A DNA stretch of 13,507 nucleotides, from the IMG/VR virus record IMGVR_UViG_2526164630_000014, positions 1 to 13,507 of that record. One strand, written 5' to 3'. This document shows, one piece after another, positions 5,621-6,016 of the stretch. The notes under the pieces were generated by a model. It did not search any database and had not been told where the DNA came from. It was given only the letters and a program-made list of their open reading frames with translations. The stretch's first letter is position 1; every line of letters begins with the position of its first letter. The DNA is from a virus (taxonomy: Duplodnaviria; Heunggongvirae; Uroviricota; Caudoviricetes). A program made the position numbers and the translations under genes.

Positions 5621-5645
5621 TCCTATCACCCAAACGTCTCTTCAC
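5621..5645. repeat. Direct repeat copy B (TCCTaTCACCCAAACGTCTCTTC), immediately 3' of the 113-aa gene
   Basis: About 24 of 26 nt identical to copy A at 5991..6016; on the coding strand it reads GAAGAGACGUUUGGGUGAUAGGA directly after the stop codon. Confidence 0.6.
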
Positions 5646-5987
5646 TCATCCGAAGAAGCAGCAATCCGGGTCAGCACGCACAAGCTCAAGCGCATCAGTC
5701 AGCGAAAGTTCAGTACTGTACTGATGCCATTTCATATCCTTCCGCATCCAATAGATTTTCCATCTATCCAGAGAACGTATGTACTTGATTCTTGCTGATG
5801 GCAGGATGTTTGTTTCACCTGGGTTGCCCTGCCACACGGGGCGCTGTTCGCCGATATCTATCGTTTGGTCATTGATGCTATAAACAATATCCAGTTCATT
5901 GCGGATATGTTCAGGCGGCCTTATGCTTTCAATGAATTGGTGAACTTCTTTTTTGACCGCTTGATATTCAAGGTCAGTGAACGCCAT
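5646..5987 (-). CDS. Hypothetical 113-aa protein (first gene downstream of cI; partner of NYN gene)
   Basis: ORF with strong SD (GAGGAGGA) 3 nt before the ATG; no transmembrane segment evident; no family recognised. Co-oriented with cI and the NYN gene. Confidence 0.65.
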   Translation of the reverse strand: MAFTDLEYQAVKKEVHQFIESIRPPEHIRNELDIVYSINDQTIDIGEQRPVWQGNPGETNILPSARIKYIRSLDRWKIYWMRKDMKWHQYSTELSLTDALELVRADPDCCFFG

Positions 5988-5990
5988 CTA

Positions 5991-6016
5991 TCCTCCTCAC
6001 CCAAACGTTTCTTCTG
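5991..6016. repeat. Direct repeat copy A (TCCTccTCACCCAAACGTTTCTTC), immediately 5' of the 113-aa gene
   Basis: Overlaps the ribosome-binding site of the 113-aa gene; paired with copy B at 5621..5645, so the two copies bracket that gene. Confidence 0.6.

Follow-up and report, generated by a model that had tools for sequence, protein, structure and literature searches.

Introduction

Susskind and Botstein reportedly put forward the modular-evolution model of lambdoid phages, and comparisons of the HK620/HK97 era are said to have brought to light boundary sequences at the junctions of lambdoid modules. In T4-type phages, cassettes of open reading frames flanked by PeSLs were reportedly described from hyperplastic regions by Arbiol and colleagues in 2010. 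The interval between cI and N is a mosaic hotspot with defence genes (PMC8585504), which cites Degnan and colleagues (2007) for this hotspot. At this locus the aba element, a short DNA element with terminal direct repeats, is functional (PMC8585504). Phage Rad52-like recombinases (Red/RecT) recombine short and diverged homologies, the lengths tested exceeding 18 nt (PMC3945230), and in phage 933W the genes cI, DUF3024, L0083 and stk change expression together (PMC10789677).

Here we analysed a stretch of viral DNA of 13,507 nt, referred to below in its entirety as the window, in which a small DUF3024 gene next to cI is bracketed by two copies of a short repeat. No description of this motif, which we call M, was found in the literature searched. 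The case appears to be a clear and previously undescribed instance of the known mosaicism of phage genomes.

Layout of the immunity region

The window represents the immunity region of a lambdoid prophage of the Stx type, and the features relevant to the repeat are collected in Table 1. The promoter-like site of the NYN-module leader, with the long hairpin and T8 tract behind it, could serve as the terminator of the cI operon, act on the NYN gene as its leader or attenuator, or encode a small RNA ~65 nt long. A terminator hairpin follows the NYN gene at 4611-4632 (-) (AACCCGGCCACCGAGCCGGGTT), and a near-identical hairpin follows DUF3024 in a Rahnella prophage (L194, ~3365-3390). The Rfam family Lambda_thermo, the cIII thermoregulator, matches at 2700-2758 (-) with 88.5 bits.

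Table 1. Features of the immunity region around repeat M, followed by the homology classes obtained by megablast of the window against phage genomes (positions are those of the window).
Feature	Position	Strand	Remarks
N	3749-4132	-	
NYN/PIN-like gene, 285 aa	4640-5497	-	next module; other phages have different genes here
NYN-module leader	5498-5625	-	begins TAGGAAGTAAG straight after M1; same sequence after the cI stop in ev099 and AU5Stx1
Promoter-like site in NYN leader	-35 at 5607-5602, -10 at 5584-5579	-	TTGACG-17-TAGATT
Long imperfect hairpin in NYN leader and T8	5516-5568; T8 5507-5514	-	fold z -2.4; ends 9 nt before the NYN start codon
Repeat copy 1 (M1)	5626-5643	-	GAAGAGACGTTTGGGTGA; begins 2 nt after the DUF3024 stop
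One repeat period, 371 bp	5626-5996	-	RBS GGAGGA-TAG, DUF3024 ORF, GT, M1; missing from AU5Stx1
DUF3024 gene, 113 aa	5646-5987	-	PF11225; PADLOC candidate defence PDC-S43; phrog_3467
Shine-Dalgarno GGAGGA of DUF3024 gene	5991-5996	-	3 nt before ATG 5985-5987; cassette-specific, outside the conserved repeat
Repeat copy 2 (M2)	5997-6014	-	GAAGAAACGTTTGGGTGA = E-E-T-F-G-stop; untranslated vestigial 3' end of lambda-type cI
Untranslated stretch from cI stop to M2	6015-6047	-	in frame LHRHIAGNQWP, relic of an older cI tail
cI repressor, 234 aa, HTH and Peptidase_S24	6048-6752	-	same cI in BP-4795 and AU5Stx1
cro	6866-7099	+	
cII	7238-7537	+	
Match to ev099 and 2B8	4601-5644		then straight into lambda-type cI
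Match to 933W, phi24B and Stx2-I	5621-6475		DUF3024 and C-terminal part of cI, then L0083-stk
Match to BP-4795 and Stx1a phages	5994/5997-6800		same cI, without DUF3024
Match to Salmonella ST160	5622-6006		gene and both flanks, 86% identity

An 18-nt direct repeat brackets the DUF3024 gene

Repeat finding together with a pattern search identified an ungapped direct repeat of 18 nt at 5626-5643 (TCACCCAAACGTCTCTTC) and 5997-6014 (TCACCCAAACGTTTCTTC), identical at 17 of 18 positions and with a period of 371 nt. The pattern occurred twice in none of 200 dinucleotide shuffles, and any direct repeat matching at 17 or more of 18 positions within 500 nt turned up in only 0.3% of 300 first-order Markov simulations of the window. 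A preliminary description of this DNA had reported the repeat as 24-26 bp long, a figure that is too high. The proposed TCCT(cc/a) extension of 5-7 nt requires a 1-nt indel, matches over 4 nt only and lies outside the conserved unit, and the last 2 nt of the two intervals given there (5644-5645 versus 6015-6016) are mismatched. Comparison among phages assigns the bases on the TCCT side to two separate modules, the cassette RBS GGAGGA on the one hand and the NYN-module TAGGAAG on the other; relative to copy 1, copy 2 carries a 6-nt insertion (TGA-GGAGGA-TAG versus TGA-TAG). One copy indeed follows the stop codon of the 113-aa gene (5646-5648) at a distance of 2 nt, as described; the other does not overlap the RBS of that gene, GGAGGA lying outside the shared core.

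M is the 3' end of lambda-family cI genes

On the transcribed (-) strand, the M core reads GAAGARACGTTTGGGTGA, which translates as E-E-T-F-G-stop and has the general form GAAGA(A/G)ACGTTTGGGTGA. M is the terminal coding sequence, that is, the last five codons and the stop, of lambda-family cI repressor genes: the annotated cI of phage ev099 and that of lambda both end on it (...QWPEETFG-stop, ...GKVIASQWPEETFG-stop). A scan of IMG/VR for exact M sequences returned at least 120 contigs with a match. Among the matches listed, 127 exact occurrences in all, 67 close an open reading frame of at least 100 codons in frame, many cI types lie upstream, and more than 40 kinds of sequence (as 25-mers), the BstA/aba module among them, follow the TGA. 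M is common in lambdoid phages as the EETFG-stop end of cI; the idea of a cassette still holds.

The cI gene of the window itself ends in ...EWLKSS with a TGA at 6048-6050, 16 codons short of the old end, and is followed in frame by LHRHIAGNQWPEETFG-stop, so that M2 represents an old cI tail that is no longer translated. This tail is vestigial, because relatives break its frame through an 11-nt deletion (phage 2E9) or an in-frame TGA (one IMG/VR variant). Programmed UGA read-through restoring the QWPEETFG tail of cI was considered in view of the weak UGA-C stop context, yet it was rejected given these broken frames.

M1, in turn, lies in a frame other than that of the DUF3024 gene. Its sequence equals that of the one M copy in ev099 and AU5Stx1, which likewise leads into NYN-module sequence. 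A mini-ORF encoding MSEETFG-stop at 5626-5649 (-) (ATG AGT GAA GAG ACG TTT GGG TGA) overlaps the stop codon of DUF3024 (ATGA arrangement); it was discarded as a candidate because it lacks conservation outside the E. coli lineage. The M1 of Erwinia and Izhakiella instead follows a TAG in frame, and in E. tasmaniensis an internal TAA is present.

Empty and filled sites and homology breakpoints

Phage AU5Stx1 provides an exact empty site for the 371-bp unit: the same cI is followed by one M and then by TAGGAAGTAAGTTTTATGTTGACGG..., which belongs to the NYN module of the window, and DUF3024 is absent. The homology classes listed in Table 1 were also recovered in 799 complete E. coli genomes, and the breakpoints between them coincide with the edges of M: phages and E. 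coli genomes alike show them at window positions 5621, 5644, 5994/5997 and 6020-6025. The full NYN-M-DUF3024-M-cI arrangement is present in only 9 of 5426 complete E. coli genomes. The best E. coli match to window positions 4600-6800 is O121 strain RM8352, with 98.9% identity.

M flanks DUF3024 on both sides in all 58 IMG/VR loci in which the gene could be located, and the 371-nt M-to-M spacing of the window recurs in 14 IMG/VR loci. Across the DUF3024 loci the left junction does not vary (stop-GT-GAAGA...), while the sequence beyond M1 is of at least four kinds. The window equals 933W to the left of M1, and equals ev099 and AU5Stx1 from M1 position 15 rightwards, where it has G versus A in 933W; the joint in the window consequently lies within M1 positions 1-14 or the preceding 2 nt. 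The preliminary description had proposed looking for relatives with one copy of the repeat and no 113-aa gene, and such relatives exist (AU5Stx1, ev099/2B8, BP-4795 and the Stx1a phages). The converse, a lambdoid-phage copy of the gene without flanking repeats, which it had named as evidence against a cassette, was not encountered among the 58 IMG/VR DUF3024 loci.

The DUF3024 gene family

The bracketed gene encodes a full-length DUF3024 protein, matching Pfam PF11225 over profile positions 2-112 of 112 (E 2.4e-31) and PDC-S43 over positions 1-115 of 115 (E 7e-42). The AlphaFold model of the 113-aa protein has a pLDDT of 89.8 and an alpha-beta5-alpha arrangement; no solved relative was found by sequence, and no close structural neighbour of the model was found in the PDB. 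DUF3024/PDC-S43 is a candidate defence gene with predicted anti-phage activity, and the literature searched contained no experimental paper on this activity.

Among 81 DUF3024 loci from diverse bacteria, the flank repeats of 13 exceed the 99th percentile of controls made from mismatched loci, and the long flank repeats have the form of integron attC sites (GCCTAAC...GTTAGGC). Arrays of attC-like repeats, with up to 8 to 11 copies and a spacing of roughly 280-1550 nt, were seen in L212 (436-3967), L219 and L272 (37-2763). The DUF3024 homologues of these arrays, with 34-48% identity, come from Luteimonas, Niveibacterium and uncultured Gammaproteobacteria, and Nitrosomonas is also among the integron-cassette hosts. 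The arrays around these homologues therefore identify DUF3024 as a recurrent integron cassette ORF. The term cassette thus applies to the family in two ways, for a site-specific unit in integrons and for a homology-bounded one in prophages.

M around other inserts and in distant homologues

DUF3024 is not the only gene bracketed by M. A hydrophobic ORF of 24 aa (VMREYLIVGVVTLLSVVAIVLMVA) is bracketed by M at 87-nt spacing in five loci, and a YoaK-like ORF of 32 aa is bracketed at 125-nt spacing. Phage phi80 (NC_021190, 924-998 (+)) carries the same 24-aa ORF, unannotated, followed by a diverged second M copy, GATGAGACGTTTTGGTGA. On contig L065 the two inserts form a three-copy array, cI-M-orf24-M'-yoaK-like-M''-terminator, and on L034 the second M is followed, after 16 nt, by a close match to the 63-bp aba element published by Owen et al. 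(2021) and by the start of bstA. The 24-aa and YoaK-like ORFs are small, hydrophobic and unannotated, and lie directly downstream of cI within M boundaries (phi80, L034, L065 and L069).

Other cI ends are found at the same junction. In lambda (NC_001416, ~2192-2227 (-)), a 36-nt stub, TCGGCAAGGTGTTCTGGTCGGCGCATAGCTGATAAC, stands right after the cI stop and corresponds to the 3' end of another cI type, IGKVFWSAHS-stop, which is the real C-terminus in repressors of the SH2026Stx1 type. Phages with an IGKVFWSAHS-type cI carry M after that cI, and in a Kluyvera prophage DUF3024 is bracketed by an IGKVFWSAHS-type stub, not by M. Since both lambda and Kluyvera carry such remnants, stubs of cI 3' ends evidently accumulate at this junction.

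In Enterobacter, Erwinia and Izhakiella, at 59-86% protein identity, an M1-like sequence of up to 24 nt (TGGCCNGANGAGACGTTTGGNTGA) follows the DUF3024 stop. It persists beside the gene even at prophage positions that do not adjoin cI, and in most of the Enterobacterales homologues aligned M1 lies 0-4 nt from the stop. In Erwinia, 16 of 18 positions of M1 are conserved while the protein is only 59% identical, a level of conservation that exceeds what a neutral relic would show, so that M itself could have a function. Since most of the substitutions leave ETFG intact, we ascribe this conservation to exchange, time and again, with cI ends that are coding. In ST160, Yersinia, Rahnella and E. ludwigii, M1 has undergone decay or truncation. 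A four-gene block of Erwinia aphidicola (L195, 3001-5130) that adjoins tail genes, not cI, contains DUF3024, a 153-aa protein, a Ser/Thr kinase and a 47-aa protein, in the order of DUF3024-L0083-stk-L0081 in 933W, and retains M1 and the GGTCGCAGAGRTGCGG hairpin in its first intergenic space.

Alternative explanations for the repeat

An origin of the repeat as a chance match or an assembly artefact, to which the shortness of the core (only 18 nt) and the weakness of the extension first proposed might lend some colour, can practically be discounted: repeats of this kind are rare in the simulations and shuffles described above, and the reading is refuted by the recurrence of both copies in independent genomes, comprising the 58 IMG/VR loci, 933W, many Stx phages and E. 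coli genomes. More serious, if still improbable, is the reading of M as a cis-acting functional element of the cI operon, RNA or DNA, repeated because each downstream small gene needs it, with translational coupling, RNA processing or stability, or DNA self-immunity of the aba kind as possible roles. The proximity of M1 to the DUF3024 stop and its conservation beyond that of the gene would suit such an element, as would the start of the next ORF, usually 0-14 nt past the TGA of M (a GTGATG overlap for the 24-aa ORF, GGGTGA-GGAGGATAG-ATG for DUF3024), the GGGUGAU sequence, which is complementary to the 16S rRNA 3' tail, and the precedent of aba as a functional short DNA element at this locus. 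The relation of M1 to the next gene is nevertheless not constant across phages, since in the window and in 933W it leads into unrelated sequences at unequal distances from that gene. A different sequence does the bracketing in the Kluyvera locus, M1 has decayed in the four lineages named above, M2 of 2E9 has lost 11 nt, and the ETFG-preserving substitutions fit a recent derivation from coding cI ends better. The RNA-level regulatory element proposed in the preliminary description, located both at the RBS and in front of the NYN gene, is not supported by the data. A gathering-threshold Rfam scan of the whole window returned only Lambda_thermo at 2700-2758, so that no known RNA family lies at either copy, and the RNA reading was dropped because neither copy folds better than shuffled sequences (z -0.04 and -1.5); in addition, the RBS lies outside the core.

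It is very improbable that the repeat is a target-site duplication or a site-specific scar, left by a transposon or by insertion of an integron-integrase cassette at a secondary site, even though DUF3024 is a bona fide, attC-flanked integron cassette ORF in many environmental bacteria and the filled site differs from the empty one by an exact insertion with an 18-nt duplication. An inverted-repeat scan of 4500-7300 found no pair at the ends of the 371-bp unit, inside which the DUF3024 ORF is the only one, so that the unit has neither the terminal inverted repeats of a transposable element nor a transposase or integrase, and no integron integrase is present near the repeat among the ORFs scanned (N, NYN, DUF3024, cI, cro and cII). 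Target-site duplications do not usually have lengths of 18-25 nt, and insertion by integron integrase at secondary sites is not known to duplicate the target. M, with its 18-25 nt, lacks the RYYYAAC...GTTRRRY core sites of attC and any internal palindrome hairpin; ACGTTTGGG within M bears a superficial resemblance to ACGTTAGG of attC ends, which we regard as coincidence. The duplicated sequence is, moreover, the coding end of cI, and in Kluyvera the stub of another cI end is duplicated instead. The unit does not have the make-up of a moron either, with no promoter-like site between cI and DUF3024 and the first terminator-like hairpin located beyond M1, in the NYN module.

Discussion

The 371-bp segment is a presence/absence unit in the cI operon, and we consider it likely that M serves as a short homology patch for module exchange within the known cI-N mosaic hotspot. 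The earlier suggestion of a single-gene cassette with the repeat as a duplicated junction or recombination point agrees with the empty sites and with the flanking of the gene by M at all 58 loci, as long as the repeat is regarded neither as a dedicated recombination site nor as a transposition duplication. M owes its conservation in many cI alleles to its protein-coding role, and by virtue of this conservation it would supply a short patch of homology to otherwise unrelated phages. A crossover between M1 of a cassette and the cI-terminal M of another phage, with a second crossover elsewhere, would bring the cassette to lie before another downstream module; recombination of M2 with M1 would remove it; and unequal crossovers between M copies would let arrays of M-delimited small genes grow or shrink. 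The exchanges would be short-homology recombination events, probably carried out by phage annealing proteins of the Red/RecT/Erf type. As for the first M1, it would have originated in an illegitimate joint within the 3' end of a cI gene.

Homologous exchange alone does not explain the separate downstream M of three different inserts. One could go further and propose, with considerable doubt, that M is the linker of an integrase-free cassette system in lambdoid and P22-like prophages, in which M-delimited gene arrays under the repressor promoter are shuffled, gained and lost by short-homology recombination. Such arrays would comprise DUF3024/PDC-S43, the 24-aa and YoaK-like membrane peptides, and defence modules such as BstA behind M. 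If true, the M system would be the homologous-recombination counterpart of integrons, using a gene family that is an integron cassette elsewhere.

The preferred reading, M as a homology patch, reveals no new kind of mechanism: it describes an ordinary mosaic joint that happens to be unusually clear. It does offer a base-pair-level view of the swapping of accessory and defence genes in the best-known hotspot of mosaicism among lambdoid and Shiga-toxin prophages, where the repressor gene lends its conserved final codons as a portable joint; gain and loss of the cassette are therefore testable by simple PCR or amplicon assays. The analysis also flags unannotated small ORFs downstream of cI, for instance in phi80, and links the prophage candidate defence gene PDC-S43 to integron cassette pools.

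Several known systems resemble the locus in part. As with RexAB and BstA-aba, DUF3024 lies downstream of cI and is presumably expressed from PRM in lysogens; unlike these, DUF3024/PDC-S43 is a candidate defence gene only, and the sequence of M is unrelated to aba. Integron cassettes share with the M-bounded units a single promoterless ORF between direct repeats, arrays downstream of a strong promoter, and the DUF3024 family itself, whereas M has neither attC structure nor core sites, no integrase is involved, and exchange would be homologous instead of site-specific. The PeSLs of T4-type phages are likewise short repeats that flank single accessory ORFs and accompany shuffling, loss and gain by homologous recombination, but they are regulatory, consisting of an early promoter and a stem-loop; M has neither of these and derives from coding sequence. 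The closest parallels are lambdoid. The position of the unit agrees with the cI-N hotspot, where variable accessory or defence genes occupy the space from cI to N and share the transcript of cI, and M agrees with the lambdoid boundary or linker sequences in being a short sequence at a gene boundary, common to phages with unrelated flanks, with which the homology breakpoints between genomes coincide. M differs from those boundary sequences in that it can be identified as the last codons of cI and in its occurrence as two or three copies within one genome, which thereby bracket single small genes in the manner of cassettes.
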